Part shown: piece by piece, positions 3 to 64,000 of the stretch
How positions within the stretch are numbered: position 1 is the stretch's first letter
Layout of the letters: every line of letters begins with the position of its first letter
Source: Bacteroidales bacterium
Lineage (GTDB): Bacteria; Bacteroidota; Bacteroidia; Bacteroidales; FEN-979
Direction of reading: 5' to 3'
Assembly: GCA_023229525.1 (NCBI GenBank)
Contig: JALNZC010000002.1
Coordinates: 33,090-97,089, forward strand
Length of the DNA stretch: 64,000 bases
Position numbers and translations under genes: made by a program
The notes under the pieces: model-generated
The model's input: only the letters and a program-made list of their open reading frames with translations
The model's database searches: none
Told to the model about the DNA's origin: nothing

Positions 3-2183
3 AACCTGAATTGGACAGATGCAACCGGTGATCAGGTTCCCACAGCATATCTTGTTCTTGGAAGTTCTTCAGATAATATTGAACTGCCGGTTGACGGTAT
101 TCCCGTTTCGGATGATCCTGACCTCGCCGATGGTTACGGCGCTATAAACGTTCAGGCAGGGGTTCAATCGTGTCATTTTTCAAACCTGCCATCAAACGTT
201 CCTTATTATTTTAAAATTTTTCCCTATACCAACAGCGGAATTCTGATCAACTACAAGACGGACGGAACTCCCCCGGCCGCCACTGCCACGACCCCCAATG
301 CTTACATTATCAATTCGGAAAATTTCAATAGTGGCACATTTGGCACATGGACCCAAATGACAACGGCTGGCGACACTTCATGGATAATTGATATGACCCA
401 TGGTGTCGGAGGTACTCCATGTACCAAAGCAAGCGGCTATTTTAATTCCGCAAATCATCTTACTGAGATGTGGCTGATTTCTCCGGCGCTGAATTTAAAT
501 CATTATACCAATGGGATATTTAATTTTCAAACCGCAAAGAATTATACCGGTCCGATACTAGAAGTGCTTATTTCCAATGATTACAACGGAACAGGCACCC
601 CCGATGAGTTCACCTGGATTCCACTTTCAGCGACGCTTAGCCCCGGTGGCTGGGCATGGACTTCTTCGGGAAATATAGATATCTCCGCCTATTCAGGGCA
701 AAGCGTTTATCTTGCTTTTAAATTCAGCAGTACCGACACTGAATCGGCCACCTGGGAAGTTGATGATATCCTGGTCACTGCAGTTCCAACCTTCGATCTT
801 CCCATTGTAACAACGAACCCCATCTTTACCGATGTAACATATAATTCTGCCACCGGTGGAGGAAACGTTACCGATGATGGCGGCTCTACAATAATTGCCC
901 GCGGACTTTGTTATTCGACCACATCGAATCCTACAATCGGCGATCCTCATACTACTGAACCCGGTACACTTGGCGAATTTACGAGTACCATGACCGCATT
1001 GACCGCCCAAACCACCTATTTTGTAAAAGCTTATGCAACCACAACCATAGGTACCGGTTACGGAGAGGAGGCATCCTTTTCCACTCCCTGTGAACCCATC
1101 GCACCTGTTTCCGATTTTTTTGCCGATACGTTGTTTGTCAGGATCGGGGAAACAGTTACCTTCTCTGATGCCTCTACGAATTGTCCGACCTCATGGGACT
1201 GGACTTTTGCAGGAGGCAGCCCGGAAGCATTTTCCGGCCAGACCCCTCCACCTATACAATATAATATCCCGGGTGTTTACCAGGTTTGCCTGACGGCCAC
1301 CAACGATTACGGAAATTCAACAAATTGCAAGGATGCTTACATAACCGTGTTGGGACCAACCAATGCACATATCGTCATGACCGAGATCATGTACAATCCT
1401 CCGGAAAGCGGTTCTGATTCCCTCGAGTTTATCGAATTATATAATAACGACCAGGTATCCTGGAACCTTCAAAATTTCTATTTTGACAAAGGCGTTGTTT
1501 TTACTTTTCCGGATTACGCAATGACACCCGGTTCTTATGTTATTGTAGCAAAAAATTCTTCAGCTTTCCAAAACACGTTTCATGTCCCTTCGATACAATG
1601 GACGGAAGGAGCCCTGAGTAATTCAGGTGAACCGATCGTAATTAAAGATTATCTCGGTTATATTGTTGATTCCGTATATTACAGACCCGATTTGCCATGG
1701 GATACCTTAGCCAACGGATTCGGACCCTCACTGGAACTTTGTGATCCCAGTGCAGACAATACTGACCCGTTAAACTGGCGTCATGCCATTGAATTCCAAG
1801 CAATCAATGCGGCAGGAGACTCCATCTGGGCTTCTCCCGCGGCTGGCTGTTCTTACTTTCCGGTCGCTGATTTCTCTGCCAGTGAAACAACCATCGTAGA
1901 GCATGGTTATGTAACCTTTACGGATGCTTCTTCTTCAAACACAACAGGATGGGAGTGGACATTTGATGGAGGGACTCCTTCCTCATTTTCAGGGAAGTTT
2001 CCACCTCCGGTGCAGTACAATGTTCCGGGGCAATACACGGTTTGCCTTGTTGCCAGCAACAACATCGGAAATTCAACAAACTGTAAACAGGATTATATTA
2101 CCGTACTTAGCCCGACAAATGCAAATATTGTGATTACCGAAATCATGTATAACCCACCTGGGAATGATGCAGATTCGCTTTAA
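3..2183 (+). CDS. Large T9SS-cargo surface protein, cut at its 5' end by the window edge. Contains FN3-like, choice-of-anchor-J-like beta-sandwich, PKD and lamin-tail-domain (LTD) modules. Ends at an in-frame TAA (2181-2183) inside the second LTD.
   Basis: The frame is open from nt 3; NLNWTDATGDQVPTAYLV parallels LNWVDAVGAQLPTGYLV in the next gene. PKD-like FSDASTNCPTSWDWTFAGG is present. LTD signature ITEIMYNPP..SLEFIELYNND occurs twice. The frame continues at 2184. Confidence 0.75.
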   Translation, partial: NLNWTDATGDQVPTAYLVLGSSSDNIELPVDGIPVSDDPDLADGYGAINVQAGVQSCHFSNLPSNVPYYFKIFPYTNSGILINYKTDGTPPAATATTPNAYIINSENFNSGTFGTWTQMTTAGDTSWIIDMTHGVGGTPCTKASGYFNSANHLTEMWLISPALNLNHYTNGIFNFQTAKNYTGPILEVLISNDYNGTGTPDEFTWIPLSATLSPGGWAWTSSGNIDISAYSGQSVYLAFKFSSTDTESATWEVDDILVTAVPTFDLPIVTTNPIFTDVTYNSATGGGNVTDDGGSTIIARGLCYSTTSNPTIGDPHTTEPGTLGEFTSTMTALTAQTTYFVKAYATTTIGTGYGEEASFSTPCEPIAPVSDFFADTLFVRIGETVTFSDASTNCPTSWDWTFAGGSPEAFSGQTPPPIQYNIPGVYQVCLTATNDYGNSTNCKDAYITVLGPTNAHIVMTEIMYNPPESGSDSLEFIELYNNDQVSWNLQNFYFDKGVVFTFPDYAMTPGSYVIVAKNSSAFQNTFHVPSIQWTEGALSNSGEPIVIKDYLGYIVDSVYYRPDLPWDTLANGFGPSLELCDPSADNTDPLNWRHAIEFQAINAAGDSIWASPAAGCSYFPVADFSASETTIVEHGYVTFTDASSSNTTGWEWTFDGGTPSSFSGKFPPPVQYNVPGQYTVCLVASNNIGNSTNCKQDYITVLSPTNANIVITEIMYNPPGNDADSL

Positions 2184-2192
2184 TTCATTGAA

Positions 2193-3131
2193 TTGTATAA
2201 CAACGATATCGTCACATGGAATTTACAGAATTTCTATTTTGATAAAGGAGTTACTTATGCTTTCCCGGAGACTATACTGAGTCCGGGTGCATTTCTTATC
2301 GTTGCCAAGAATTCTGCCAGTATGCAAAATACCTTTAATATACCATCACAGCAATGGACCGAAGGTTCACTCGATCACCAGGGAGAACCGATCGTATTAA
2401 AGGATCATCTTGGATTTGTTATTGATTCGGTTTATTATCATCGGGAATTACCATGGGACACTTTAGCCAACGGACATGGACCTTCCCTTGAACTTTGTGA
2501 TCCGAATTCCGATAATACCGATCCGGCCAACTGGCGTCATGCCCTCGAGTTTCAGACGGTGAATGCCACAGGTGATTCAATCTGGGCCTCACCACTTGCC
2601 GGATGTTCCTATCCGCCGACAGCTAATTTCACTGCCGACAATACCGTTATTCATTTACATGATTATGTGACTTTTACGGATGAATCTTCGTCGAACACCA
2701 CAACATGGGAATGGATATTTGATGGTGGAACACCCTCCACTTTCTCCGGACAGAATCCACCACCTATCAAGTACAATGCCTTCGGTCTCTACGATGTTAC
2801 TTTAAGGGTTTCCAATATTGCAGGACATAATACATTGATAAAATCCAATTATATAGATGTCGGATGGGTAGGGATACCGAAAGCCGAAAACCCAGCAGGA
2901 TTCTCTGTTTACCCAAACCCATCTTCAGGAAAATTCAAGGTGGTTTTGAATGGAGAAAAATCCTGTATGATCCGGATTCTGGACCCAATTGGAAATATTA
3001 TCATGGAAAGATCAACCCGTACCGAAAATAATTACTTTGACCATTCTGGTTTGACACCCGGAATTTACATTGTACAAGTAACGGAAACGGAAACCAACCG
3101 GTCATCAAACCAAAAATTAGTCATTCAATAA
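2193..3131 (+). CDS. Continuation of the same surface-protein gene: rest of the LTD, a PKD domain and a T9SS C-terminal sorting domain.
   Basis: Same reading frame as 3-2183. FIELYNNDIVTWNLQNFYFDKG directly continues the LTD interrupted by the TAA. The only start offered by the ORF track is a TTG. C-terminus FSVYPNPSSGKFKV...GIYIVQV...KLVIQ matches the T9SS type-A CTD pattern. Confidence 0.7.
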   Translation: MYNNDIVTWNLQNFYFDKGVTYAFPETILSPGAFLIVAKNSASMQNTFNIPSQQWTEGSLDHQGEPIVLKDHLGFVIDSVYYHRELPWDTLANGHGPSLELCDPNSDNTDPANWRHALEFQTVNATGDSIWASPLAGCSYPPTANFTADNTVIHLHDYVTFTDESSSNTTTWEWIFDGGTPSTFSGQNPPPIKYNAFGLYDVTLRVSNIAGHNTLIKSNYIDVGWVGIPKAENPAGFSVYPNPSSGKFKVVLNGEKSCMIRILDPIGNIIMERSTRTENNYFDHSGLTPGIYIVQVTETETNRSSNQKLVIQ

Positions 3132-3147
3132 TCTTAATTTATTACTT

Positions 3148-5634
3148 ATGAAAAATCGTATTACAGCTTTTCTCTTGATGGTCCTGCTGTTCACCGGTTC
3201 AATAACATTTGGACAGGGACTTGAAAATTTCGCTAATTACCCAGAGACAGGAAATTCCTATCATGATGGAACCTTTACCGGCCAGGATGGTTCTATGTGG
3301 TCGTATTTCCAGTGCCGGGGCGATCGGCCCATCAACCCACCGACACCTTGTATCAGAAAGAACACAGCCACAGCAACTGGTTTGATCTATTCCGGTTCAA
3401 TACCCAACGGTTGCGGAATTCTCAGTTTTGATTATAAACAAGGATTTTCCTCTGCAGTTAACCTGAATGTTCTGATCAATGGCTTGGTAGTAGGAAATGT
3501 TATCAGTCCCGGAGGAAGCGGAGACACCAGCGTGGTCCATAACTCGGGTCCTATTACAGTGAACGTTTCCGGTGATTTCATCATCCGGTTCGAGCAGGTC
3601 GACCTCTCCTCAGGACAGGTAGCTATTGATAATATTACGTGGACTGCATACAACACAGCTCCGTTGCCGGAACCCACCAATTATCCGACGGCCTTTACCG
3701 CCACCCCTTTGCCCAATACCATCGCCCTGAATTGGGTGGATGCCGTGGGTGACCAATTACCGACTGCTTACCTTTTGTTGGCCAGTGAAAATGATAATAT
3801 TGACCTGCCTGTGGATGGCGTTCCTGTACCTGATGACCCAGATTTGACAGATGGTACTGCCGCCAAGAATATCCTTCCCGGTGTTCAGACCTATCAGTTC
3901 ACCAACTTACCCAACAATAAAGCGTATTTCTTTAAAATATTTCCATACACCAATACCGGGAGTAACATCAATTACAAAACAGATGGCGTGCCACCTGCTG
4001 CTACAGCCATAACGCCAAATTATTCAATTATCAACTCCGAGAATTTCAACAATGGTAATTTTGGTTCCTGGACCAAAATGACTGTAGTGGGTGATACTTC
4101 GTGGATTATTGATTTGACCCATGGAGTTGGGGGTACACCATGCGCCAAAGCAAGCGGATTTTTTGCCAGTTCCTCGCATGTTACTGAAATGTGGCTTCTC
4201 TCTCCGGCTATGAATTTCGATCAATATACCAGTGAATTATTGAGTTTTCAGACAGCAAAGAACTATACAGGTCCCGACCTTGAGGTAATGATATCCAGTA
4301 ATTATGACGGAACCGGCAACCCCAATAACTTTACATGGACACCGCTTACAGCTACACTTTCAGCCGGAGGATGGGTATGGACTCCTTCCGGGAGTATAGA
4401 TATATCAACCATTGGTGGCACACATGTTTATGTTGGTTTTAAATATACAAGCACAGCTACCGAATCATCCACTTGGGAATTGGATGATATTCTGATCCTG
4501 GGTATCTCCGGGATCGGCCCTTTACCTGAACCAACCAATTATCCGACAAGTTTTGCTGCAGTGCCTTCTCCCTTTACTGTTAAACTGAATTGGGTAGATG
4601 CTGTCGGGGCCCAACTTCCAACCGGCTATCTTGTCAGGGGAAGTTCTTCAGATAATATTGAACTGCCTGTGGATGGGGTGCCTGTTCCGGATGACCCTAA
4701 CCTGGCTGATGGTTCGGGTGCATTGAATACTCTTCAGGGTGTACAGACCTGTCAATTTAATAATTTGCTGGGTAACACGCCTTATTACTTTAAAATTTTT
4801 CCTTACACCAACACAGGAATTACTATCAATTATAAAACCGACGGAACACCACCCAGTGCAAATGCCACCACACCCAATATTTCTATCATCAACTCCGAGA
4901 ATTTCATTAACGGTAATTTTGGTACCTGGACTAAAATGACAGTTACAGGTGATACTTCGTGGATTATTGATCTGACCCATGGAGTTGGGGGAACCCCCTG
5001 CGCCAAAGCAAGCGGTTTTTTTGGCAGTTCCTCTCATATTACTGAAATGTGGCTTCTCTCTCCGGCGATGAATTTCGATCAATATACCCAAGAATCATTG
5101 AGTTTTCAGACCGCGAAGAACTATACCGGACCCAGCCTTGAGGTATTGATATCCAGTGATTATAATGGTTCAGGTAATCCGAATAGTTTCACCTGGACAT
5201 CACTTACGGGAACACTTTCGCCAGGGACCTGGACATGGACCCCGTCCGGAAGTATTGATATTTCAGCCATTGGAGGGACACATGTTTATGTTGGTTTTAA
5301 GTATACGAGTACCGCTACTGAATCAACCACCTGGGAAGTGGATGATATTCTAATCCTTGGTGTCTCATCGGTGGGCATCCCGGAAACAACAATGAATAAT
5401 GAATTCACTGTGCTTCCAAACCCTTCGGATGGTCAGTTCCGGATACTTTTCAATGATAATTCACTCAAAGAGATCCGGATTTATTCAATGATCGGAACCG
5501 AACTCTTTCATGCCAATACCAGTCAATCTGAATTCGGTGTGTACCTTCCGAACCTTTCCGCGGGGATTTATTTCATCCAGGCGAAGAAAACAGGATCGGA
5601 TAAACCGGAAGTGAAAAAGCTCATTATCCGTTAG
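3148..5634 (+). CDS. Secreted T9SS-cargo protein with an internal tandem duplication of an FN3-like plus choice-of-anchor-J-like module. Paralogous to the upstream gene.
   Basis: Signal peptide MKNRITAFLLMVLLFTGSITFGQ. Two near-identical blocks of about 280 aa (PLPEPTNYPT...WE.DDILILG). C-terminal FTVLPNPSDGQFRILF...GIYFIQAKK...KKLIIR is a T9SS CTD pattern. Confidence 0.85.
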   Translation: MKNRITAFLLMVLLFTGSITFGQGLENFANYPETGNSYHDGTFTGQDGSMWSYFQCRGDRPINPPTPCIRKNTATATGLIYSGSIPNGCGILSFDYKQGFSSAVNLNVLINGLVVGNVISPGGSGDTSVVHNSGPITVNVSGDFIIRFEQVDLSSGQVAIDNITWTAYNTAPLPEPTNYPTAFTATPLPNTIALNWVDAVGDQLPTAYLLLASENDNIDLPVDGVPVPDDPDLTDGTAAKNILPGVQTYQFTNLPNNKAYFFKIFPYTNTGSNINYKTDGVPPAATAITPNYSIINSENFNNGNFGSWTKMTVVGDTSWIIDLTHGVGGTPCAKASGFFASSSHVTEMWLLSPAMNFDQYTSELLSFQTAKNYTGPDLEVMISSNYDGTGNPNNFTWTPLTATLSAGGWVWTPSGSIDISTIGGTHVYVGFKYTSTATESSTWELDDILILGISGIGPLPEPTNYPTSFAAVPSPFTVKLNWVDAVGAQLPTGYLVRGSSSDNIELPVDGVPVPDDPNLADGSGALNTLQGVQTCQFNNLLGNTPYYFKIFPYTNTGITINYKTDGTPPSANATTPNISIINSENFINGNFGTWTKMTVTGDTSWIIDLTHGVGGTPCAKASGFFGSSSHITEMWLLSPAMNFDQYTQESLSFQTAKNYTGPSLEVLISSDYNGSGNPNSFTWTSLTGTLSPGTWTWTPSGSIDISAIGGTHVYVGFKYTSTATESTTWEVDDILILGVSSVGIPETTMNNEFTVLPNPSDGQFRILFNDNSLKEIRIYSMIGTELFHANTSQSEFGVYLPNLSAGIYFIQAKKTGSDKPEVKKLIIR

Positions 5635-8592: not shown

Positions 8593-8650
8593 AAAAACTA
8601 TAAACTCAAAAGTCAAAACTCAAAACTCAAAACTAAAACTTAAAGATTAA
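8593..8650. repeat. Tandem 7-nt repeat array (AAAACTC family).
   Basis: aaaactataaactcaaaagtcaaaactcaaaactcaaaactaaaactt, immediately upstream of the icd start. Confidence 0.8.
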
Positions 8651-8670
8651 AAATTATTTGTTACTTTATT

Positions 8671-8760
8671 TATCCATTCTCTATTATCCAGCATCCATTA
8701 TCCAGCATCTTGTATCCAGCATCTTGCATCCAGTATCTTGTATCCTGCATCTTGCATCTT
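8671..8760. repeat. Tandem 14-nt repeat array (TATCCAGCATCTTG, two 7-mers), about 6.4 copies.
   Basis: tatccattctctat / tatccagcatccat / tatccagcatcttg x2 / catccagtatcttg / tatcctgcatcttg / catctt. The array abuts the stop codon of the 1529-aa gene. Confidence 0.9.
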
Positions 8761-42499: not shown

Positions 42500-42576
42500 G
42501 GATGCAGGATGCAGGATGCAGGATACAGGATACAGGATACAGGATACAGGATACAGGATACAGGATGCAGGATGCT
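42500..42576. repeat. Tandem heptamer array, 11 units (GGATGCA x3, GGATACA x6, GGATGCA, GGATGCT), between alaS and the alkylation-repair gene.
   Basis: Counted directly: 77 nt of uninterrupted 7-nt periodicity. Confidence 0.95.
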
Positions 42577-51221: not shown

Positions 51222-51306
51222 GGAATGGGAGGAAGGAATGAAGGAATGAAGGAATGAAGAATTGAGTGATTGAGTGATTGAGTGATTGTGTGATTGTGTG
51301 ATTGAA
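51222..51306. repeat. Two abutting tandem 8-nt arrays (GGAATGAA x3, then TGATTGAG/TGATTGTG x6).
   Basis: ggaatgaa ggaatgaa ggaatgaa gaattgag tgattgag tgattgag tgattgtg tgattgtg tgattgaa. Confidence 0.9.
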
Positions 51307-52425: not shown

Positions 52426-52545
52426 CCACCTGCCCACTTGTCCACCTGCCCACTTGTCCACCTGCCCACTTGTCCACCTGCCCACTTGTCCACCTGCCCA
52501 CTTGTCCACCTGCCCACTTGTCCACCTGCCCACTTGTCCACTTGT
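52426..52545. repeat. Perfect tandem 16-nt repeat (CCACCTGCCCACTTGT), 7 full copies plus a half copy.
   Basis: Counted directly from 52426. Lies between the gldB-like stop (52388) and the comM start (52614). Confidence 0.95.
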
Positions 52546-52613
52546 TAATAACTTTTTTCCGTTAATGTATTACTTTTCTTATTCCAGGGGGATTAATCTA
52601 GAAATCTGTTGAT

Positions 52614-53669
52614 ATGCTGGTAAAAACATATGGCAGTGCCGTATTTGGAATCACAGCTATGACCGTAACTGTGGAGGTTCATATGGATCAGGGTATCCAG
52701 TTTTTTATGGTGGGATTGCCCGACAATGCCGTCAGGGAAAGTCATCAGCGCATTGAATCAGCCTTACGGACAAACGGGTATCGGATTCCCGGGAAAAAGA
52801 TCACTATAAATATGGCGCCGGCTGACATCCGAAAAGAGGGGTCATCATATGATCTTACCATTGCTATGGGAATACTGGCCGCGAATGAAGTAATAAAACC
52901 GGATAAACTTGAACATTACATGATCATGGGGGAGCTTTCGCTTGACGGAAGCCTGCTGCCGATCAAAGGAGCCATATCCATTGCCCTTGAAGCCCAGCAA
53001 AAGGGATTCAAGGGGATTTTACTTCCTGTTCAAAATGCGAGGGAGGCAGCCATTGTACGTGAACTTGAAGTTTATGGGGTTCAGACAATCCGGGAAGTTA
53101 TTGATTTTTTTAATGACGCCTGCATTTTATCGCGTCAATTTCCTGAAGTAACAAACGAAACCGATCAAGCCTTTTCTGAACATGAATATGATTTTGCGGA
53201 TGTCAGGGGTCAGGAGAACATAAAACGTGCAATAGAAATAGCCGCTGCTGGTGGCCACAATGTCATTCTGATCGGACCTCCCGGAGCTGGAAAAACAATG
53301 CTGGCAAAACGGCTTCCATCCATTCTGCCCCCATTGAATTTCAGGGAAGCCATTGAAACAACCAAAATACATTCCATTGCAGGGAAACTTGGAGTAAACC
53401 GGTCACTGGTATCGATGCGACCTTTCAGGGCGCCTCACCATACAGTTTCGAACACGGCTCTTGTCGGTGGTGGTAGTATTCCGCAACCGGGAGAGATCTC
53501 TCTTGCTCACAATGGTGTTTTATTCCTCGATGAACTGCCGGAATTCAAAAGATCGGTTCTGGAAGTCTTGCGTCAGCCAATGGAAGATCGTGTCGTGACA
53601 ATCTCCCGCGCCAAGGTAGCCATTGAGTATCCATCCAGCTTTATGCTTGTGGCAGCAATGAACCCTTGA
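52614..53669 (+). pseudogene. comM: comM/yifB (Mg-chelatase-like AAA+ ATPase), truncated after about 351 codons by island insertion.
   Basis: N-terminal Lon-protease-like domain; Walker [10 protein letters not shown]; Walker [10 protein letters not shown]. The ORF ends ...FMLVAAMNP*, where family members continue with a Cys-rich CPCG zinc motif and about 150 more residues. Confidence 0.85.
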
Positions 53670-55140
53670 AGTTGCATTGCTTATTTCCCAGCTTTCCTAA
53701 ATTGGATGGAATATACGCAAGCTTGATTGCAATGTCTTCACGTCCAACGGTTATTTTCTCGGTAATGACTTCAATGATTGTCCGTTTTTCTTCAAAGGGC
53801 ATTTGGGGCCAGCGGTCATAGAGGTCTTTGGCGTCTCGTAATATGGTGTCTGATGATAGGGTTTGAATTTTAAGGAAATCGACTTCGGCCATGAGTTCAG
53901 GGAGCTGATTTTCGATTTGAGCTAATTGTTCTTCAATGGGTTTGTAGTGACGGGGGAAGCTGTCCTTGGAGATTTCGCCGGACAGTCTCATGGCCACTAG
54001 TTCATTCATTTCTTTGCGGATTCTGTCAGCTTCGCTAGTTTGCCGGGACAGCATGGTTTCCTTTTCTTGAATAATTGAATCTGTTTGGGAAAGATAGGTT
54101 TTGATGTCCTGATCAGTGAGTAAAAAGGCTTTAAGTTGTTCATGATAGATTTCATCAATGTCTGCGGCCAGAATTCTGTTTTTGCAGGCTTTACAAGTAA
54201 ATACGTTGGAAGGATGGAAAACATACATCTTTTTACCGCAAGAGCAGGACAATAGACCGGAAAGAAGGTGGGCTGGTTTAGGTCCCGGTTTCCGGCGTTT
54301 GATTTCCTGTTCTTCTAAAATTCGATTACATTCATTCCAAAGCTTATCAGAAACTACAGCCGGACAAGCGGTAACAATCCATTCACTTTCCGGTTTAAGA
54401 GTCCAATGTTTACCCTCCCCTAAGCTTTTTGTGTAGTTGGCCCGGCGTTCACCTTTGGCCGTTGGGTCTTTAATCAATCGATCAACAGTTGTGTCAGAAA
54501 ATTTTGAGCCGTTCCGGGTCCGGTATCCGAGGTCGTTTAACTCTTTGGCCGTAGTTTTTTTTCGTTTATGCTTTAAAAATATCTCGTAAAGGAGTTTCCG
54601 GATTGGGGCTTCTTTTTCATCAACCACCAGCTCCTTTCCGTCCCAACGATAGCCAAACGAGCCGGCCCCACCCAGTGGCTTGCCTAATTTAGCGCGGACG
54701 GGAACTGAAGCGGCTACCCGGCTGGAAATTTCTTCCCGTTCCCATTGAGCCATAGCCGCTATCATGGTGTAAAAGAGTCGTCCAGCCGGGGTGCTCGTGT
54801 CTATGGCTTCCTGAAGCGATATTAGGTCAGCATTGCTTTCCCGAAAGAGGTCAGCAAAGTCGAGCAGTTCTCTGGTATTTCGGGCTAATCGGGCCAGCTT
54901 GGAAAAGATAAGTCCGGTAATGTTACCATGTTTAATATCTCTTAACATCCTCTTGGTTTCCGGGTGATCCATCACGGATTTGCCGGAAACTGCTTCTAAA
55001 TGATAGACCTCAACAACATTCCATTCTTTGGCTTCAGCATATAATCGAGCCCGTTTTTCGTGATGTTCAGGCGATTCTCCTTTTGCCTGATCTTCGGTAC
55101 TGACACGAATCCAGATACCGACTTCTTTCTTGGTTTCCAT
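53641..55140 (-). CDS. Large serine recombinase (integrase).
   Basis: Resolvase-type catalytic region [12 protein letters not shown], a recombinase domain, the zinc-ribbon [25 protein letters not shown], and a C-terminal coiled coil. I prefer the ATG at 55140 (METKK) over the TTG at 55173. The last 9 or so codons read into comM antisense sequence. Confidence 0.9.
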
Positions 55141-55302
55141 TCTATTGTGTTGCCGTGAGCCAAAATTACTCAATTGTTATGATCGTGAAGCAGCTAAAGG
55201 GGCGAATTTTTATATATTTGCCGGGTTATTATCGTTCCTAATCCAAATAATTGCTGAAGTTACCCCCATCATTGGAAAGCAAACCAAATCTACTCATTAA
55301 CC

Positions 55303-57813
55303 ATGACAGAAGAAATAAAAGAAGGCTATATACACGATTATGTTTCTGGTGTTGAAATAAAAGCCACACCTGAAGAAATTGAAGCCGTCCAAGTTTATTC
55401 AAAAATTCTTGTCGAGGACTATGAGTACCCAAAAAACCACCTTCAAACTCGACCTCAATGGAGGGTAAAAGTAAGACCTTCTGATAACAAAAAAGAGTAT
55501 CCTGTTGATATCGTTATTTTTGAGAATAACAAAAAGGAAGATGGAGCGGAGATCATTATCGTTGAATGTAAAAAAAGGAACCGTAAAGACGGTAGAACAC
55601 AGCTAGAAGATTACTTAAGATTTTCTAGAGCCAGTATTGGTGTGTGGTTCAATGGTGATGAAAAATTATTTCTTAAGAAATCTGAAAAAAAAGGAAAGGT
55701 TCTGTTTGAAGAAATACCAAATATTCCAAAGTATGGTGAGAAGCTTGAAGATATTGGACTGTACAAAAGGAAGGATTTAAAAATAGCCCATAACCTTAAA
55801 AGTGTTTTTAAAACGATAAGAAACTACCTGGCCGCCAACGCAGTTGGAATTACGCGAGACGAAGTATTCGCTCAACAAATTATCAATGTGATCTTCTGCA
55901 AGATTTACGATGAGCGCTTTACTAAACCGGAGGAAACAGTTAATTTTCGTGCGGGGATTGAGGAAGACTCAAATATTATAGCTAACCGAATAAAGGATAT
56001 TTTCGAAAAGGTTAAAACACAATACGGTGATGTTATTGAGAAAAATGACAGAATATTATTAGATGATTCCTCATTAACATATGTTGTAGGTGAGCTGCAA
56101 ATATATTCAATCACTCAAAGTGAGAGGGATGCAATAGCGGATGCCTTTGAAACATTTATTGGCCCCTCTTTAAAGGGTGGCCAAGGTCAGTTTTTTACTC
56201 CACGCAATATTGTCAGGCTAATAATTGAGATCGTCAATCCGTCTGAGACCGACAAAGTAATTGATCCGGCCTGTGGTAGTGGCGGATTTCTCGTTGAAGG
56301 GTTACGACATGTTTGGCGGAAGATTGACCAAAATGGTAAAAAATTCAACTGGCCTGATCCTGAGATTTATGCTGAGAAACAGAAGGCCGCCATTCAGAAT
56401 TTTAGGGGAATCGATAAGGATAATTTTCTTAGCAAGGTTGCTAAGGCTTACATGGCGATAATCGGTGACGGTCGCGGGGGCGTGTTTTGCGAAAACTCTC
56501 TTGAGAATTTTAAAAACTGGAAGGTCTCAACCAGAAATGGAATTAGTATTGGCGAATATGATGTGGTTGTTACTAATCCACCGTTTGGAAAAAAACTTAA
56601 GATTGATGACATCGGAATTCTAACTTCTTTTAATCTTGGCCATAAATGGAAAAATGACAAGAAAATAAAAACTTTCGAATTGACCAATATCCTTCAAGAT
56701 GCCCAGGCTCCTCAAATTCTTTTTGTTGAGAGATGCTTAGAGTTATTGAAGGATGGAGCTAAAATGGGATTTATTGCCCCGGAAAGTATGTTTTGTAACC
56801 CAAGTCATAGATACATCGTTCAGTATATTAAGTCTATAGCCAAAATAAAGGTAATAATTTCGTTGCCTGAGGAGTTGTTTCAACCATATACCCATGCTAA
56901 AACTTGCCTGGTTGTTCTTGAAAAGGACCTAAAAAAGGCGAAAGCTGATCACGAGATATTTATGGCTGTTGCTAAGTGGTGCGGTCATGATTCAAGGGGC
57001 CTTGAAATCCCCTTTGATGATATCCCCAAGATTCAGAATAGATATAATCAATATGTGACAGATGGGAAGATTGAATATGATCATTTAGGATTTACAATTT
57101 TAGAATCTCACATTAAAAGTAATGTTTATTTACCTAAATATTACAATCCGGAAATGCAGGATAAATTGAAAATTCTATCAGAAACTCACGACTTGGTCGA
57201 ATTTAAGGACTTAGTTAAAGCAAAGATTATTAGAGTATCAACTGGTGATGAAGTTGGCAAATTGAGTTATGGAACTGGTAATATCCCTTTTATTCGGACG
57301 TCTGATATCGCAAACTGGGAAATTAAAAGTGACCCAAAACAGGGTCTGAGCAATGAAATCTATGAGTCATTAAGGGAGAAGCAAGATGTTTGTGAAAATG
57401 ATGTCTTAATGGTTAGAGATGGAACATATTTAGTTGGCACCTGTGCTATTGTCACCAAACTCGAAACAAAGATTCTTTATCAGAGCCATTTGTACAAAAT
57501 CCGGTCACTTGACCCTGAGAAATTGCATCCATATTTGTTATTGGCGTTACTTTCCGCACCAATCGTTAAAGAACAAATAGCCGCTAAGCGTTTTACTCAG
57601 GATATTATTGACACGCTTGGGGAACGATTATATGAGCTCGTTTTACCTATACCGAAGAATGCCAAGGATAAGGAGAAAATTATAAAAAACATTGAAGATG
57701 TAATTTCTTATAGGATAAAAGCGAAGGAGATTGCTCGAACCACTATCTTAGAGTTAGCTCCTGATGGCACTGATTTTACAGATGAATATGATTTCTTGAC
57801 TATGAGCAAGTAA
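55303..57813 (+). CDS. Single-chain Type IIG-like restriction-modification enzyme: HsdR-N-like PD-(D/E)xK nuclease, N6-adenine methyltransferase and an HsdS-like target-recognition domain.
   Basis: Nuclease YPVDIVIF...IIIVECKK. Methylase FFTPRNIVRLI, VIDPACGSGGFLVE (motif I) and VVVTNPPFGKK (motif IV NPPF). The C-terminal single TRD has GNIPFIRTSDI. Confidence 0.8.
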   Translation: MTEEIKEGYIHDYVSGVEIKATPEEIEAVQVYSKILVEDYEYPKNHLQTRPQWRVKVRPSDNKKEYPVDIVIFENNKKEDGAEIIIVECKKRNRKDGRTQLEDYLRFSRASIGVWFNGDEKLFLKKSEKKGKVLFEEIPNIPKYGEKLEDIGLYKRKDLKIAHNLKSVFKTIRNYLAANAVGITRDEVFAQQIINVIFCKIYDERFTKPEETVNFRAGIEEDSNIIANRIKDIFEKVKTQYGDVIEKNDRILLDDSSLTYVVGELQIYSITQSERDAIADAFETFIGPSLKGGQGQFFTPRNIVRLIIEIVNPSETDKVIDPACGSGGFLVEGLRHVWRKIDQNGKKFNWPDPEIYAEKQKAAIQNFRGIDKDNFLSKVAKAYMAIIGDGRGGVFCENSLENFKNWKVSTRNGISIGEYDVVVTNPPFGKKLKIDDIGILTSFNLGHKWKNDKKIKTFELTNILQDAQAPQILFVERCLELLKDGAKMGFIAPESMFCNPSHRYIVQYIKSIAKIKVIISLPEELFQPYTHAKTCLVVLEKDLKKAKADHEIFMAVAKWCGHDSRGLEIPFDDIPKIQNRYNQYVTDGKIEYDHLGFTILESHIKSNVYLPKYYNPEMQDKLKILSETHDLVEFKDLVKAKIIRVSTGDEVGKLSYGTGNIPFIRTSDIANWEIKSDPKQGLSNEIYESLREKQDVCENDVLMVRDGTYLVGTCAIVTKLETKILYQSHLYKIRSLDPEKLHPYLLLALLSAPIVKEQIAAKRFTQDIIDTLGERLYELVLPIPKNAKDKEKIIKNIEDVISYRIKAKEIARTTILELAPDGTDFTDEYDFLTMSK

Positions 57814-57827
57814 AACGATAATGTAGT

Positions 57828-59675
57828 CTATTTTTTCGTAAAATTATGTAGCTCCGGCGTCCTTGCCGTAAATAATGCATATTTACTTAGCAGATTTCTG
57901 GCATATGGATTATGTAATCTTCTTACCCGCTTTATTCCATATTTAATCGAATTTTCTTCTAAAGAAATGATCTTCCCTAAGGAGGAGTTTAATGATATCT
58001 TTTTTGCTTTAAGCAAAAGGATGGTTCCGGCAGTTTCAGTGGCTAGATTTTTAATATCTTCTCTCAAATCTTTAATAGTTTTGAACATTTTTTCAAAATC
58101 GGTTTTCAGTTTTGGCAATCGTGATTCCCAGGATGAACTTATTAAATTCTGGTCAAAATCGATTAATGCTAAACTTGAAGCCTCCCCATCTTGATTAAAA
58201 ACACATAAATCTAATACGTTTAAATCGACTAGGATGGGCTTTTTGAGGTTTACTACCCCTATGTTCTGGTTGTCATCAGAATAACAATCAAGGAGAAATT
58301 TATTGGCTAAATAGGAATTTTGATTTCTATAAAGTTTTTGAAAGTTCATTATAAGTTTATCGACCTCATCATTATTTTTCTCATCGATCTTTAGTAATGT
58401 CGCAAATTCAGCGCCTCTTTTCCCATCACTCCTCATCATTAAATCACATTCTTGGGCAACAAGTATATAATTACCTTTATTATCTCCTTCGTAAACTTCA
58501 AAAATATCTCCATTTCCTAAAGGTAAATGAAGTGAGTTTAGTATTTTACTTTCAAGATAAATTTCAGCCCTTCTTAGTTTATCGCTGTCTTTATTTGGCT
58601 GACTGTCAAATTTGACCTCAAAACGAATATCACTTATTTTTTTTGCTTGTTTAATATCCGGATTAACAGTTTTGGGATAGGAGCTTGAAAACATAAATTC
58701 TCTAATCTTCTGATTATAAAGAATGTCGAAAAACCTTAATAGTGTTTCCACTTCCCAGACACCTTCTTCATTTGAAGAAATAAGGACTGATTGATCAAAA
58801 TCGTATGTATCAATGGATTTTATCCCCTCTAACACATCTGTTTGTACCTTAGTAACAAGTTCCAGGGATTCAGATTTTATTTTCTCGAAATATTTATCCA
58901 GAATTGCCTTTTTTATTCCATCACATATTAATTCTGGTGTTGAAATTCTTTGTTTTGTTAATGCAAAAAAATCTTTTGTATCCAGGCCAATCTCCTTTGC
59001 TAACTCTCCTCGCTTTTGAAATTCTTCATGCACCGAACTGATAGTATGGGTGATTAGAATACAAAAAGCTTTATCTCCCAGGCCCGTGTTTTTCACTTCC
59101 AATATTAGACTATTTCCCTTGGTTCTTCCTGTTGTGAATTCCTCATCAATAGCCTTGGTCAAATCTTGATCAAAAATAAGTAATACTTTTTCCGTTCCAG
59201 TTATTTTCTTATCAATATCCTTTGAAATAGTGCGCCATTCTTCAGGACCAATCAACTTTAAATACCTCTCTTCAAATATATTCTTTAATTCATGTGTCTT
59301 ATCATAATCATCTGGTTCGAAGGTTGTATCATTTAATCCGGCAAAACTCTTATAGATTGCAGATTTTTTAGGATCATCAAAGGTTTCCCATTTTTTAAGG
59401 AAATCCTCCAAAATAACATCGATGTCTGGTAAAGTAAAATTTATATCATTATTTAAAATTGCGATCACCTTTTCAGTTTGACTAGCTCCGTGCAATGTTC
59501 TGATATGACCTGCAATAATCGAATATACATCATTAATATTGTAATCATCAATAAAATATGCTTCTTTTATCCCTACCTGATTGAGTAAGTGGCCTAGTTT
59601 TTTTATAGTCTCCGGCAGGACATTTTGTTGTATAACTTTTAGTTCAGGCTCTTCACTCATAAGATCAATTTTCAA
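57828..59675 (-). CDS. 615-aa protein of unknown function, third gene of the methyltransferase/GHKL operon and a candidate effector or partner.
   Basis: A long AT-rich ORF. Its start (TTG 59675 or ATG 59660) overlaps or abuts the stop of the upstream gene (TGA 59665-59667). No catalytic motif recognised. Confidence 0.75.
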   Translation of the reverse strand: MKIDLMSEEPELKVIQQNVLPETIKKLGHLLNQVGIKEAYFIDDYNINDVYSIIAGHIRTLHGASQTEKVIAILNNDINFTLPDIDVILEDFLKKWETFDDPKKSAIYKSFAGLNDTTFEPDDYDKTHELKNIFEERYLKLIGPEEWRTISKDIDKKITGTEKVLLIFDQDLTKAIDEEFTTGRTKGNSLILEVKNTGLGDKAFCILITHTISSVHEEFQKRGELAKEIGLDTKDFFALTKQRISTPELICDGIKKAILDKYFEKIKSESLELVTKVQTDVLEGIKSIDTYDFDQSVLISSNEEGVWEVETLLRFFDILYNQKIREFMFSSSYPKTVNPDIKQAKKISDIRFEVKFDSQPNKDSDKLRRAEIYLESKILNSLHLPLGNGDIFEVYEGDNKGNYILVAQECDLMMRSDGKRGAEFATLLKIDEKNNDEVDKLIMNFQKLYRNQNSYLANKFLLDCYSDDNQNIGVVNLKKPILVDLNVLDLCVFNQDGEASSLALIDFDQNLISSSWESRLPKLKTDFEKMFKTIKDLREDIKNLATETAGTILLLKAKKISLNSSLGKIISLEENSIKYGIKRVRRLHNPYARNLLSKYALFTARTPELHNFTKK

Positions 59676-62175
59676 TAACCGAAGATAAGTTTAGTTGAAA
59701 TATATATCGATGATTATACTGATTAGTTTCATTAAGTAGTAAAATTTCACATCCAGATGATTCAAGTAATTGCTGAACAATAAATAGCCCCAAGCCTCTT
59801 CCGATTCTTTTAGGCTTAGTTGTTATAAATGGTTGGAATAGACTGTCTTGAACGTTTGGGTCTACTCCCTTGCCATTATCAAATATCCTCAAGAAAGGTT
59901 CCTTTAGCTCAATGGTAATTAATGGATCAAAACTGGATTCAATACTTTTTTTCTCTTTGAGCCAATATTCAGAATTAATAATAATATTATCAATCACTTG
60001 GGTAATTTTCCCTTTGTTTATGCGAATGCTATAATCCTGCCCAGGTTTAACGAAAACAATTTGAATTTTTCCTGAAAATCGTTCTTTATAATAATCGATG
60101 ATTTCATCAAGAAAACTTGTCATGCCAAGTAATTCCTTACTTTCTCTTACATATTTCAAGGAAGGGGAAATATGACTTAATTGTTTTCTAAATGATTTTG
60201 TGGCATTTTTAATGTATTCGATATAAATGTTGATAGAAAGTTTATCAAGGGTATCCTTGCTATTAGTCTTTTTTATTATCCGATCAGTTTCAAGAACGAT
60301 CCTGTCAACAATATTAAGTAATTCGTGAGAAAGAGCTTCGGAAGTAAGTCCTAGTCCGGCTAATTCTGCAAATTCCGAAAGTTGCTGTTCTAGGTTTTCT
60401 ATTTGTGGCTGTAAGAATTCAATATGTTCGTCTATTTTTTTCGTTTCGGCTAAGGTTGACATAACTTCCTCTAGCATAGCTTGCGCCTCTTCAATAATCT
60501 TGGCTAACCTTTGTAAACGGTCTGTAAACTCATGGTTATCTCCTGGAATTGATTGGCCCGTCGGGTTTTCAGATAAGTCAGAGACTTCATTCTCAATCGA
60601 TTTTAAGTTCTCCTTTATTAAAGTTGCTCTTTGACTTAATCTTTTCGCGGACAATGAAGTATCTCGCAATTGCTTAAAGGAATCTTTGATGTCCTTAACT
60701 CCGGTTGATTGTTGGGCGATTTTTATTTTATATTCATTATAACTTCTTCTAGTCCCTTCCAAAATGTTATTGATTTGTTCAATAAAATAATCCATAATTC
60801 GATTAAAATTTCTTGAATATGGATTATCCATAAAACCTTCTCTATCAGTCTTCTCTTTTAAGTTGTAATTGTCTCTAGCACTGATAGATACGAATCCAAT
60901 GATGTTTTTTGGTCGCAAGCCATAAAAAGAACTTCCAGATGTTTGCAAATTTGCTAAATTGAGCCAGTCTTGCCCATTTATTCCATATGGTTTAATCCCA
61001 AAGCCATCTCTAAATACCCGTACTCCAACTTGGTTCTGTACAATCCTCTTAAACTCTGAGAAAGAATCAAATACACTTTCAATGGCTTTAGAAGTTTGAA
61101 AATAGAAATCATCCATTTCACCATTAAAATTTCCAGGGTGGGCGATAACCTCTTCATTTTTGTTTTCGTCATGAAGTACCGCCATCTTATCAAGATCACG
61201 CAAATTAACCTCTTTCTTAAAACTAAAAAACCCGCCATGTAATTTTGAATATTCCAAATTTTGAATAGAATACCTTTTATTATGGCTTGAACTTGTGAGA
61301 TACGAAAAAAAATCCTTTCCACTATCTGGAAGAATGAATTTCTCATAAAAGGCAGTGTTCTCTATTGAATTTGAACCATTTATTTTTTGCAGTTTAATTT
61401 CACCTTCAAAAAATAGTTTATCCTCAGTTACTTTAAAGGAGTACCGAGAAACTGCGTTTTCTCTAATACTGTCATTAAGTTCATCAAGATCAACATTTTG
61501 TCCATTCAATTTTAAATAAACGGTAAAAACTCGCTTCTCCTTATAGGGGAATATCATCTGAGAAACTTGCCCTCGGAATCTATCCCAGGAGCTTCCTTCC
61601 CACCTTAAGGGTTCTTTAAGATTAGTTATTACGAGTACTGTGCCTTTCTCGTTTTTCGCCTTTGGAAAAGTGCCGAGATGAACTGGAACGGAAGTTAGCC
61701 ATATATCATCATTAAAATCATTCCAGTCAAAGGCAACGTGATTTTTTGTGTCGCTGTCAATTTTCCCGGTAAACAGTTCTAACCTGTTTCCCAATCGTTG
61801 GGTGCTTAATCTTCCAACCCCTTTCTCTCCAATCGGAGTGCGTCCTTTGGGAGTAACCTTACCGTCTTCTCTAAATTTCTTTTTCGCAGAAAGAGATATT
61901 TTCATCCAACTATTCCAAATGTCGCTGTCCGACATCCCGAATCCATTATCCTCAATCTTTATATATCCCTTGGCTGAGTCTTGATAAAAAGCATTGGGAT
62001 TTGATAGGTAGTCTTTTGTGTTTACTTCGACCTTAACCCAATCGGCATCAGCGTCATATGAATTTTTAATCAATTCCATGATTGCTGTAACTTCATCGGT
62101 AACCAGCTCTTCGCCAAGTTGTCGAATGACAGCGGCACTAATGTCGAAATGCGTAATATTGTTTTGATCAGCCAA
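59665..62175 (-). CDS. 836-aa dual-GHKL protein: an N-terminal MORC/MutL/Hsp90-like ATPase, a coiled coil, and a C-terminal histidine-kinase core (DHp H-box plus HATPase).
   Basis: N-terminal Bergerat motifs MELIKNSYDADA (ExxxNxxD), IEDNGFGMS and GEKGVGRLS. C-terminal H-box ALSHELLNIV, N-box VIDNIIINSEYW, G1 FDNGKGVD, F LFQPFITTK and G2 GRGLGLFIV. The TTG start overlaps the methyltransferase stop by 8 nt. Confidence 0.8.
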   Translation of the reverse strand: MADQNNITHFDISAAVIRQLGEELVTDEVTAIMELIKNSYDADADWVKVEVNTKDYLSNPNAFYQDSAKGYIKIEDNGFGMSDSDIWNSWMKISLSAKKKFREDGKVTPKGRTPIGEKGVGRLSTQRLGNRLELFTGKIDSDTKNHVAFDWNDFNDDIWLTSVPVHLGTFPKAKNEKGTVLVITNLKEPLRWEGSSWDRFRGQVSQMIFPYKEKRVFTVYLKLNGQNVDLDELNDSIRENAVSRYSFKVTEDKLFFEGEIKLQKINGSNSIENTAFYEKFILPDSGKDFFSYLTSSSHNKRYSIQNLEYSKLHGGFFSFKKEVNLRDLDKMAVLHDENKNEEVIAHPGNFNGEMDDFYFQTSKAIESVFDSFSEFKRIVQNQVGVRVFRDGFGIKPYGINGQDWLNLANLQTSGSSFYGLRPKNIIGFVSISARDNYNLKEKTDREGFMDNPYSRNFNRIMDYFIEQINNILEGTRRSYNEYKIKIAQQSTGVKDIKDSFKQLRDTSLSAKRLSQRATLIKENLKSIENEVSDLSENPTGQSIPGDNHEFTDRLQRLAKIIEEAQAMLEEVMSTLAETKKIDEHIEFLQPQIENLEQQLSEFAELAGLGLTSEALSHELLNIVDRIVLETDRIIKKTNSKDTLDKLSINIYIEYIKNATKSFRKQLSHISPSLKYVRESKELLGMTSFLDEIIDYYKERFSGKIQIVFVKPGQDYSIRINKGKITQVIDNIIINSEYWLKEKKSIESSFDPLITIELKEPFLRIFDNGKGVDPNVQDSLFQPFITTKPKRIGRGLGLFIVQQLLESSGCEILLLNETNQYNHRYIFQLNLSSVIEN

Positions 62176-63574
62176 GCTTCCTAAATATTAGAATGTCTTC
62201 ATTATTCATTAAAGCCGTGTCTTTATTTCGCTTAGCCATCCGCTTATTGATTATTTCGCGCTCGACCTGAGTTACTAACTTTCCACCCTTGCTCTCGATT
62301 AATTCAATAAGAATTTTGCTGTTAGGGATAGTAAGCCCGGCCACCCTTCTATTGCCAATAGTCCATATCTGGTAGCTATTCTTTTTTAATACCTGGAAAA
62401 TATTATCCAAAGTCTTATTTAGGTCCAAAATAAAAGCCGCCACCTTATTATGTTTATTTTCGTTGGTATTAATAATACTCTGATAAGTATTTCTAAAGGT
62501 TGGGCTTATTTCAAGTAAAGATATCAAATCTACTTGATTTAACTGTGATGTGATCCCCCCTAATGATCTTCTATCAATTTCGCTAGTTGTCCTTAAGAAA
62601 TCCCTTGTTGCAGTCTCATCAATATCTGGGAGATCAATCCATTGCAGCGGCAAATATGAGTGTTGTCCATAAGTGACGGTCGTCTTATTATCCCCATACG
62701 GTGGAGAAGTAACTAATAGATCGTAAAAGGGTTCAGCGGTAGGGTTGAATATCCCATCTTTCGAATTTAAAAGCTTGATTTCTACGTTTCCAGTATAACT
62801 TCCATTATGAACCATCCCAAATTTTGTCAGATAGTCCACGTGAGTCCTGTAGTCCTCAAGGCTTTTCGCTAAATGATATTTGAAAAGATCAGTGGCAGAT
62901 AAGTTACGGTTCAGTATTTCTTCTTGAGGTCTAGCGTGCAACTTAAAGGTGGAAGTTCGATCATTAGAGGTTAACCGAACGGTTTCTGAAAGTATCACCC
63001 ATAAGAACCTTCTGATAGAAAGATTATCCACTTTCCGAATGGCTCTAACGAGCCTGGAAAGTTCTTTGGCAATTTCCGGCTTAAACCATTTACTTAGCCC
63101 ACGGAAATCCACTTCAATATATTCGGACTTATCGGCTCCGATATTTTCTACCAGTTGAGATTGGCTATGCTTCAGGTCATTCAGAAAATATGGCCCAGTC
63201 CGAACTTTTGCTATAAGTATCGCTAATGGGTTGATGTCGAACCCATAACAATCAATGCCAGTTTCCATGCAAGCCGCTAAAGTTGTTGCTGATCCCATAA
63301 ATGGGTCCACCATGTTTTTGATCTCTGAGTCCGCCTGAAGTACAATTTCGATGAGCTTTCGTTGGACAACCGGGACCATCATTGCCGGGTACTGAAAGAA
63401 ATTACGGAGATATTCTCTTCGGTTAAATTCCGGGCAGGTCCATATATTTGAGTTCTCCCCAGTGGCTTTGGTAACCTCAGATATGATCCTCTTGTCTATT
63501 TCAATATACCTATCTACAACCCCTATTTTATTAGGAATCAGTTCATAAAAAGTGATTTTGCGTTGTGATAACAC
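62168..63574 (-). CDS. SAM-dependent DNA methyltransferase (N6-adenine or N4-cytosine class), first gene of the operon.
   Basis: Motif I VDPFMGSATTLAAC at about aa 90 and motif IV LVTSPPYGDN at about aa 290, with a variable region of about 200 aa between them (alpha-like order). GTG start. Confidence 0.8.
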   Translation of the reverse strand: MLSQRKITFYELIPNKIGVVDRYIEIDKRIISEVTKATGENSNIWTCPEFNRREYLRNFFQYPAMMVPVVQRKLIEIVLQADSEIKNMVDPFMGSATTLAACMETGIDCYGFDINPLAILIAKVRTGPYFLNDLKHSQSQLVENIGADKSEYIEVDFRGLSKWFKPEIAKELSRLVRAIRKVDNLSIRRFLWVILSETVRLTSNDRTSTFKLHARPQEEILNRNLSATDLFKYHLAKSLEDYRTHVDYLTKFGMVHNGSYTGNVEIKLLNSKDGIFNPTAEPFYDLLVTSPPYGDNKTTVTYGQHSYLPLQWIDLPDIDETATRDFLRTTSEIDRRSLGGITSQLNQVDLISLLEISPTFRNTYQSIINTNENKHNKVAAFILDLNKTLDNIFQVLKKNSYQIWTIGNRRVAGLTIPNSKILIELIESKGGKLVTQVEREIINKRMAKRNKDTALMNNEDILIFRKLG

Positions 63575-63599
63575 GATAGTACATAATTAGCCTTGAGTA

Positions 63600-63607
63600 C
63601 AAAAATA
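63600..63607 (-). promoter_or_regulatory. Candidate Bacteroidota -7 box (TATTTTTG on the minus strand) for the three-gene operon.
   Basis: Plus-strand caaaaata is the reverse complement of TATTTTTG, 26 nt upstream of the GTG at 63574. Confidence 0.35.
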
Positions 63608-64000
63608 GTCTATTGGTACGATAGATCCTTAACCCAGGATGATTTTTTTTAACATTCTGCTGTTTGCTTCTAGCTTCGAGTTAGGAGAATGTGTGGTTAT
63701 GCCCGTTAAGAAAAGACCCCGACCAGGTAAAACGGTGTTCACTCCAGCCCTATCAACAAAAAATCCGCCAAGCCATCGCCCTGCGGGTTCGTACCTCAGC
63801 TTGTCATATTTTTTGCCTTTTATAGGGCATCCATTCACTACAGCCTGCTTTGTCTTGTAGCTATCTCTTTCTTTCCGCTTCGCTCCAGTCAATCAATAGC
63901 TACAATCCACCGGCTGATAATGTTTTGCTCGCCTGCGAGCTCATTCGGCTTCGGAATTATATTTCATTTTCCTAACTCACAAGCTTTTATATAAAATGGA

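Follow-up and report, generated by a model that had tools for sequence, protein, structure and literature searches.

A probable integrative defence island in comM of a Bacteroidales bacterium and the family of large serine recombinases found at its end

The window analysed here is a 64,000-nt stretch of contig JALNZC010000002.1 (assembly GCA_023229525.1, positions 33,090 to 97,089 of the forward strand), annotated as part of a metagenome-assembled genome (MAG) of a Bacteroidales bacterium. Within it the gene comM (yifB) breaks off after 351 codons beside a gene for a large serine recombinase (LSR), and DNA of lower G+C content follows. We conclude, with a probability of about 0.9, that these features mark the left end of an integrative island, at least 19.8 kb long, which this recombinase inserted through recombination of an attP site with an attB site in comM; the best reading of the sequence as a whole is an integrative, probably mobilisable, defence island. 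An earlier interpretation made from the letters of the window (the sequence-only reading) had proposed such an island in comM of a Bacteroidota host, and both the 3′ fragment of the gene and the second junction, attR, have now been located on another contig of the same strain.

According to the model, the LSR inserted the island by site-specific recombination between attP of the element and attB inside comM; the crossover dinucleotide is the TG of the invariant Cys352 codon. While the island is present comM would be inactive, and the sequence shows that excision at this TG would bring its two parts back together in frame. Because the recombinase and both att sites are intact, the element can presumably still excise.

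The two junctions of the island in comM

The comM 5′ fragment (52614–53669, plus strand) encodes residues 1–351 of a 512-aa protein and ends with FMLVAAMNP*, the stop codon TGA being made at the junction. Almost all homologues among the 120 best matches are 512 aa long and continue with CPCGYYNHP, in agreement with the Cys-rich motif that the sequence-only reading expected at this point; three of the 120 have exactly 351 aa, one being the protein encoded here and the other two being clusters with 74% identity. A Pfam search found the ChlI N-terminal domain in the fragment, a Mg_chelatase match that breaks off at position 158 of the 207-position profile, and no C-terminal domain PF13335; the match to the YifB family TIGR00368 (NCBIfam) covers profile positions 2–347 of 499. 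As that reading had stated for the right junction and the rest of comM, a tblastn search found the 3′ part of the gene nowhere within the 64-kb window.

The point of the cut was placed by alignment with the intact comM of a close relative (L003; 92% amino-acid and 88% nucleotide identity). The two genes align through ...AACCCTTG (also given as ...GCAGCAATGAACCCTTG), where the alignment stops; past this point the window reads AAGTTGC (AAGTTGCATTGC) and the intact gene reads TCCCTGTGG. Since the sequences diverge here, the TG of the stop codon (53667–53668) is the TG of the Cys352 codon, as had been suggested, and the stop itself (53667–53669) consists of that TG plus one base from the element. 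The resulting attL (53645–53695, plus strand), defined by this alignment, by 37 related attL sites and by its attR partner described below, is composed of the host B arm ...GCAGCAATGAACCCT, the crossover TG at 53667–53668 and the element P′ arm AAGTTGCATTGCTTATTTCC. Its arms make an imperfect dyad, AGCAATGAACCCT[TG]AAGTTGCATTGCT, which was read by eye and confirmed across the 37 sites; an inverted-repeat search missed it because the exact seed is only 7 nt long.

The recombinase gene (53641–55140, minus strand) runs into comM from the other side. The two genes overlap by 29 nt, such that the last eight LSR codons (K-G-S-L-L-P-Q-A) and the stop codon are comM antisense sequence, close to the nine or so codons first estimated. 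Independent assemblies match the window across this region, one at 100% identity over positions 52512–56243 (L001; 3732 nt) and another at 99.8% (L002), which rules out an assembly artefact at the junction.

Searching with the ComM C-terminus that the window lacks identified a 146-aa open reading frame (ORF; P0241) for the C-terminal part of ComM, recorded on a 205,331-bp contig. The window's comM fragment and two of its cargo proteins, the GHKL protein and the 610-aa protein, are likewise recorded on contigs of 205,331 bp. P0241 also lies on a 14.4-kb contig (L168) from sequencing run SRR18595301, the same run as L001. Here the attR site reads GGCAACGCAAGGT-TG-TCCCTGTGG, the end of the island being ...GAAAAAGGCAACGCAAGGT-TG-TCCCTGTGGTTATTATAACC, and comM restarts at TG-TCC-CTG-TGG; it is followed by UbiA and Methyltransf_3 genes, the same genes that stand behind the intact comM of L003. 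The island separates the first 351 codons of comM from the remaining 161. The L003 sequence matches the window up to its nt 2307 and L168 from its nt 2305, so that attL and attR share TTG only. Joining the host halves in silico (attL left, attR right) yields the intact comM of L003 with AAMNP|CPCG in frame. The short overlap and the in-frame rejoining are as expected, at the sequence level, for a serine recombinase with a 2-nt crossover. From the two junctions attP was rebuilt as ...GGCAACGCAAGGT-TG-AAGTTGCATTGC... and attB as ...ATGAACCCT-TG-TCCCTGTGG.... The comparison with intact relatives that the sequence-only reading had recommended thereby defined both attB and the crossover dinucleotide; the closest relatives (L003/P0002 and P0365) carry full-length comM genes of 512–515 aa with the same flanking genes on both sides and no island. 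Of the two findings that would have spoken against the island according to that reading, a genome without the rest of comM and close relatives with the same short comM but no island, neither was made.

No overlap was found between L168 and the window. The island therefore measures at least 10,332 + 9,488 nt, i.e. 19.8 kb. The genome scan described below found no related island with both ends inside the 10-kb flanks, and hence no complete island. One locus had been considered as a complete 11-kb island (L142, with a helix-turn-helix (HTH) gene 9.5 kb upstream of the LSR); it was rejected, the sequence to the left of the HTH gene not being comM. A metagenome scan with a relative's ComM C-terminus did not find the source, the best match being 73% identical among the matches listed.

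Many short tandem repeats of period 7, 8, 14 or 16 occur in the window (52426–52541, 42500–42573, 51232–51305, 8594–8760 and others), one of which, just upstream of comM, is a perfect 16-mer repeated 7.2 times. In another LSR locus (L090) a similar GGTGA-rich repeat follows the LSR at the place expected for comM.

The recombinase family and its attachment sites

The recombinase gene lies in an ORF spanning 53641–55173, and translation probably starts at METKK (55140), since a 499-aa product is on record and this start fits the family consensus. The catalytic domain (PF00239 Resolvase, 3.5e-32, residues 9–154) is followed by a Recombinase domain (PF07508, 2.5e-18, residues 175–277). Ser14 (IRVSTEDQ), the putative nucleophile, is invariant in 27 homologues, as are C299, C301, C316 and C319 across homologues; the zinc ribbon PF13408 matches weakly, below its cutoff (E=0.014). 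The protein also matches the structure of the TP901-1 integrase catalytic domain (3bvp) at 1.4e-18 and that of SPbeta SprA at 40 bits over residues 47–311. Judged by these domains it is a large serine recombinase, as the sequence-only reading had called it. Its homologues of about 499 aa number more than 5,600; identity ranges from 63 to 94% among the 120 best listed.

To survey the family, one genome per species was scanned, which gave 80 LSR loci. At least 49 of these have a 5′ piece of comM that stops near residue 351 and overlaps the 3′ end of the LSR gene. According to database records, the loci come from Bacteroidota, Acidobacteriota, Chloroflexota, Ignavibacteria, Armatimonadota, Gemmatimonadota, Alpha- and Deltaproteobacteria and Firmicutes; related recombinases use the same comM site in at least eight bacterial phyla. 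Another species (L004/L005) repeats the 351-aa cut and the 29-nt overlap, here with a 500-aa LSR, and has different cargo. Across phyla the recombinases are about 60% identical, compared with 47–55% for ComM.

The att sites are conserved as well. Thirty-seven attL sites, 35 of them among the comM loci, read ATGAAYCCN-TG-ARGTTGYGTTGC; the TG and the P′ arm are constant, and the base before the TG varies with the proline codon of the host. A second attR of the family (L080) reads GGTAACGCAACCC-TG-TCCCTGCGG, and palindromic attP candidates were found in three loci (L138, L104 and L163), for example GCAACACAACGT-CA-TGTTTGCGTTGC. With a 2-nt crossover TG, attL and attR that share almost nothing, and palindromic attP candidates, these sites have the features of LSR att sites.

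Several loci depart from this arrangement. LSR subclades at 58–66% identity end beside other conserved sequences (L117, L120, L132, L133, L136, L095, L154, L167, L106, L100, L119 and L153) and presumably use other attB sites. At L116 (11460–11545) the LSR and comM share a strand, and the TG connects the 3′ end of the LSR with the 3′ part of comM (GGCACACAACGA-TG-TCCATGTGG); the element is turned round, as though the core dinucleotide pointed the other way with respect to the recombinase gene. An Armatimonadota MAG (L124; 8409–9941 and 11457–12530) has an island with its own intact comM just upstream of the LSR, which is 89% identical to the disrupted host copy in amino acids and 77% in nucleotides and has NS instead of NP at the att codon; it may serve as a substitute that escapes the recombinase. 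In L113 (10001–12988) two LSR genes stand tail to tail with no comM between them. The LSR was also found on contigs binned as Thermoplasmatales, Thermococci and Minisyncoccia (L144, L158 and L099), in L144 beside a comM fragment, which may reflect binning contamination or an unusually wide host range. Other comM fragments start elsewhere, near residue 309 (DELPEF) beside a different, 719-aa serine recombinase (L069, 5699–8563) and near residue 277 (L055, at about 1500), indicating that comM has been hit at several positions by unrelated elements.

The excised form of the element was rebuilt by joining the island end in L168 (9217–9490) through the TG to the window from 53669 onward (LSR end at 53641–53669). 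This sequence contains a single 581-aa ORF that runs from the LSR through attP, whose P arm encodes N-L-A-L-P-F-S, into the ORF of an HTH protein. On integration the frame is divided, leaving a 499-aa LSR with an eight-codon tail of comM antisense and stranding the HTH part at the other end of the island, where an 87-aa Xre-type HTH gene adjoins attR in L168. Unsplit LSR-HTH proteins are on record as well: 580 aa in L099, 657 aa with two HTH domains in L104, 639 aa with two HTH domains in L163, and 638 aa in P0155. At least 15 clusters with end-to-end LSR-HTH matches were found among 1.84 billion representative proteins (clusters at 50% identity). Between the crossover and the HTH domain, five lineages have an open, in-frame stretch of the same length. 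When integrated, the L080 copy of this linker lacks a start codon, yet it is conserved at the protein level with L163, which argues that it is translated as part of an LSR-HTH fusion. In one large contig with an unsplit fusion, a TraD-like ATPase gene and restriction-modification genes lie downstream.

With attP inside the LSR-HTH frame, the product would depend on the state of the element: an LSR-HTH protein of 581 aa after excision, an LSR of 499 aa lacking the HTH after integration. The two forms could signal, in the manner of a switch, whether the element is inserted. We tentatively propose, as an idea somewhat more likely to fail than to hold, that the comM-specific recombinase is really an LSR-HTH fusion of about 580–660 aa with attP between its body and the HTH domain or domains, which would be lost on integration and regained on excision or circularisation, and that the different forms could set directionality or control genes of the element. 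As attB is an invariant Cys codon of a nearly universal gene, the clade in this view also operates in at least eight phyla and could provide a landing system with a broad host range.

Cargo and the nature of the element

The G+C content is 0.429 before the comM fragment (1–52613), 0.45 in the LSR gene (53641–55173) and 0.361 beyond it (55174–64000), and in L168 it is 0.351 for the island part and 0.443 for the flank. The AT-rich character first noted for the downstream DNA thus amounts to 36% G+C against 43% in the host. As the LSR gene resembles the host (0.45) and the cargo does not (0.36), the island is compositionally mosaic.

A divergent intergenic region (55141–55302, from the ORF list) separates the LSR gene from the first cargo gene (55303–57813, plus strand), whose 836-aa product fuses a nuclease-like N-terminus to an N6-adenine methyltransferase and a specificity domain. 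The product matches HSDR_N_2, N6_Mtase and Eco57I in Pfam, and MTase_II (8e-86), mad2 and the C-terminus of a type I S-subunit in PADLOC; the NCBIfam model MADS2 scores 384 bits, below its cutoff of 720. By these matches it resembles type IIG enzymes and MAD2. A three-gene operon on the minus strand follows. Its first gene (62168–63574) encodes a type II N6/N4 DNA methyltransferase (Pfam N6_N4_Mtase; PADLOC MTase_II, 8.5e-99), and the next (59665–62175) an 836-aa protein with two GHKL/HATPase domains (Pfam HATPase_c_3 and HATPase_c) whose N-terminus resembles BbrUII/HgiDII-type restriction enzymes, the NCBIfam model restrict_BbrUII matching at 2e-18, far below cutoff. The last gene (57828–59660) encodes a 610-aa protein recorded as hypothetical protein M0Q38_01340, for which no family match was found in Pfam, PADLOC or NCBIfam. 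Positions 63575–64000 contain no convincing gene, and the island runs on past the window, with no overlap to the contig on the attR side. In its domain matches the cargo is restriction-modification-like, as had been described.

At the far end of the island, L168 encodes a 176-aa protein and then a 1005-aa TraD/VirD4-like ATPase (mad8-like in PADLOC), both at 606–4150, together with a RidA-like gene and an 858-aa gene without assigned function. The ATPase occurs in 28 LSR loci (e.g. L097, L143 and L131) at 46–56% identity over its full length, and the pair formed by the 176-aa gene and the ATPase of about 1000 aa accompanies the LSR in different phyla, frequently lying immediately upstream; it is probably a backbone module of the element. 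Beside the LSR, relatives carry type III restriction-modification genes, OLD/Gabija/PARIS-like ATPases and a dCTP-deaminase defence gene.

The presence of the TraD/VirD4-like ATPase suggests a mobilisable element rather than a phage. An island of this kind could nevertheless be a prophage, that is, a temperate phage with a serine integrase that uses comM as attB in the manner of phage WO. Large serine recombinases are common as phage integrases, the sr1WO prophages enter the Mg-chelatase gene of Wolbachia and have an HTH_XRE gene at the far end (PMC9203015, PMC5062602), and the middle of the island is unseen. We consider this very improbable: the 19.8 kb seen hold no phage structural, packaging, lysis, capsid, terminase or tail gene, the best phage LSR match is about 28% identical, IMG/VR holds no close LSR relative or attP match and its two 50%-identical matches do not lie beside comM, and the 10 kb beside the LSR in relatives contain defence genes and the TraD-like ATPase. 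If instead the element were an immobile remnant, an old fixed insertion whose recombinase no longer works, this would fit the lack of a circle or empty site in the same sample and the split, in the integrated state, between the recombinase and the HTH part of the full-length protein. However, the recombinase ORF is intact and keeps all residues invariant across 27 homologues, the two att sites agree with the consensus of the family, the island is absent from close relatives with 88% nucleotide identity, and cargo differs between otherwise similar insertions, which indicates recent, repeated integration; an immobile remnant is accordingly unlikely. There remains the idea that comM is naturally short or truncated by mutation, or that the junction is an assembly chimera, with the recombinase merely adjacent. 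It draws on the short ORF itself and nothing more, and it is refuted by a comM 3′ part with the matching att half-site (attR), by three assemblies that agree on the junction, and by recurrence of the same junction in at least 49 loci.

Several points nonetheless weigh against the integrative-island interpretation or parts of it. The middle of the island is unseen beyond nt 64000, where phage or conjugation modules could lie, and attR was taken from a different assembly of the strain, not from the contig of the window. The sample yielded neither an excised circle nor an empty site, which makes present-day mobility an inference, and no gene was recognised as a recombination directionality factor. 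With respect to the LSR-HTH frame, the attP-like site of L138 is followed by a stop after eight codons, showing that the HTH fusion is not universal, and unsplit fusions lie inside large contigs (L099 in one of 840 kb), where they may be tandem-array junctions or the recombinase may have another role.

ComM is a helicase that aids the integration of foreign DNA during natural transformation. Its gene is a well-known target of mobile elements, and those that break it are believed to guard themselves in this way against removal by transformation (PMC12378983, PMC11472951). Here a single highly conserved LSR clade breaks comM at one codon in many phyla, usually with anti-phage cargo. A recombinase with an attB in most bacteria would be a candidate broad-host-range integration tool, and from the split LSR-HTH gene comes a directly testable idea of the means by which a serine integrase could tell the integrated from the excised state of its element.

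Comparison with known gene-splitting elements

Elements that split a gene by means of an LSR have been described as cases of regulated gene integrity (Mageeney et al, 2020; PMC7192596), among them Listeria phage A118 in comK, SPbeta/SprA in spsM of B. subtilis and skin/SpoIVCA in sigK. The same study lists yifB/comM as a candidate target, with comM-disrupting elements at several positions in its supplement (PMC7192596). Like these elements, the island has its LSR at one end and is inserted inside a conserved coding region without restoring the gene; it splits conserved ComM domains (Mg_chelatase at 158/207, PF13335 detached) and supplies only a stop codon. Excision would likewise be predicted to rejoin the gene in frame, and a tight clade accounts for many independent insertions at the same position, in differing hosts and with differing cargo (at least 49 of 80 loci). 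Unlike the known gene-splitting recombinases, to which it is distantly related (40 bits to SPbeta SprA, and about 28% identity or less to phage integrases), the LSR of the window belongs to elements whose host range crosses phyla and whose attP lies inside a recombinase-HTH ORF.

The sr1WO prophages of phage WO combine an LSR with insertion in the Mg-chelatase (chlI/comM-like) gene of Wolbachia (PMC9203015, PMC5062602). They share with the island the insertion into a gene of the same family, the flanking gene halves and the HTH_XRE gene at the far end. They are tailed prophages, in contrast to the absence of phage genes from the 19.8 kb seen here.

The sequence-only reading had also pointed to comM as an integration hotspot, with the resistance islands of Acinetobacter as an example. 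The target is indeed known, and these islands resemble the present one in that the same gene is broken in its Mg-chelatase domain and receives resistance or defence cargo. The comparison is otherwise an analogy, as the AbaR/AbGRI islands are Tn7-like transposons (tniA/B/C) with target-site duplications (PMC11472951), unlike an element with a serine recombinase and a 2-nt crossover. No Tn7-like transposition genes were found in the 19.8 kb of island seen, and the 3 nt shared by the junctions surround the recombinase crossover and are not a target-site duplication.

The literature that we could cover, which is incomplete and hence weak evidence of absence, held no description of a cross-phylum clade tied to the Cys352 codon, of the TraD-like backbone of the comM-specific clade or of attP inside an LSR-HTH gene. 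Gene-splitting LSR elements and comM as a hotspot are thus known already, and the in-frame attP is possibly new. Its nearest counterpart is found in the SSV1-type archaeal integrases, for which a review describes attP inside the int gene and partition of int on integration (PMC8371274). In both cases attP lies within the recombinase frame and the integrated and excised states encode different proteins. They differ in that SSV1 uses a tyrosine recombinase and disrupts the catalytic protein, whereas here the body of a serine recombinase stays whole and only its C-terminal HTH domain or domains are detached. If true, the partition of the LSR-HTH gene would be the serine-recombinase counterpart of SSV1-type int partition.

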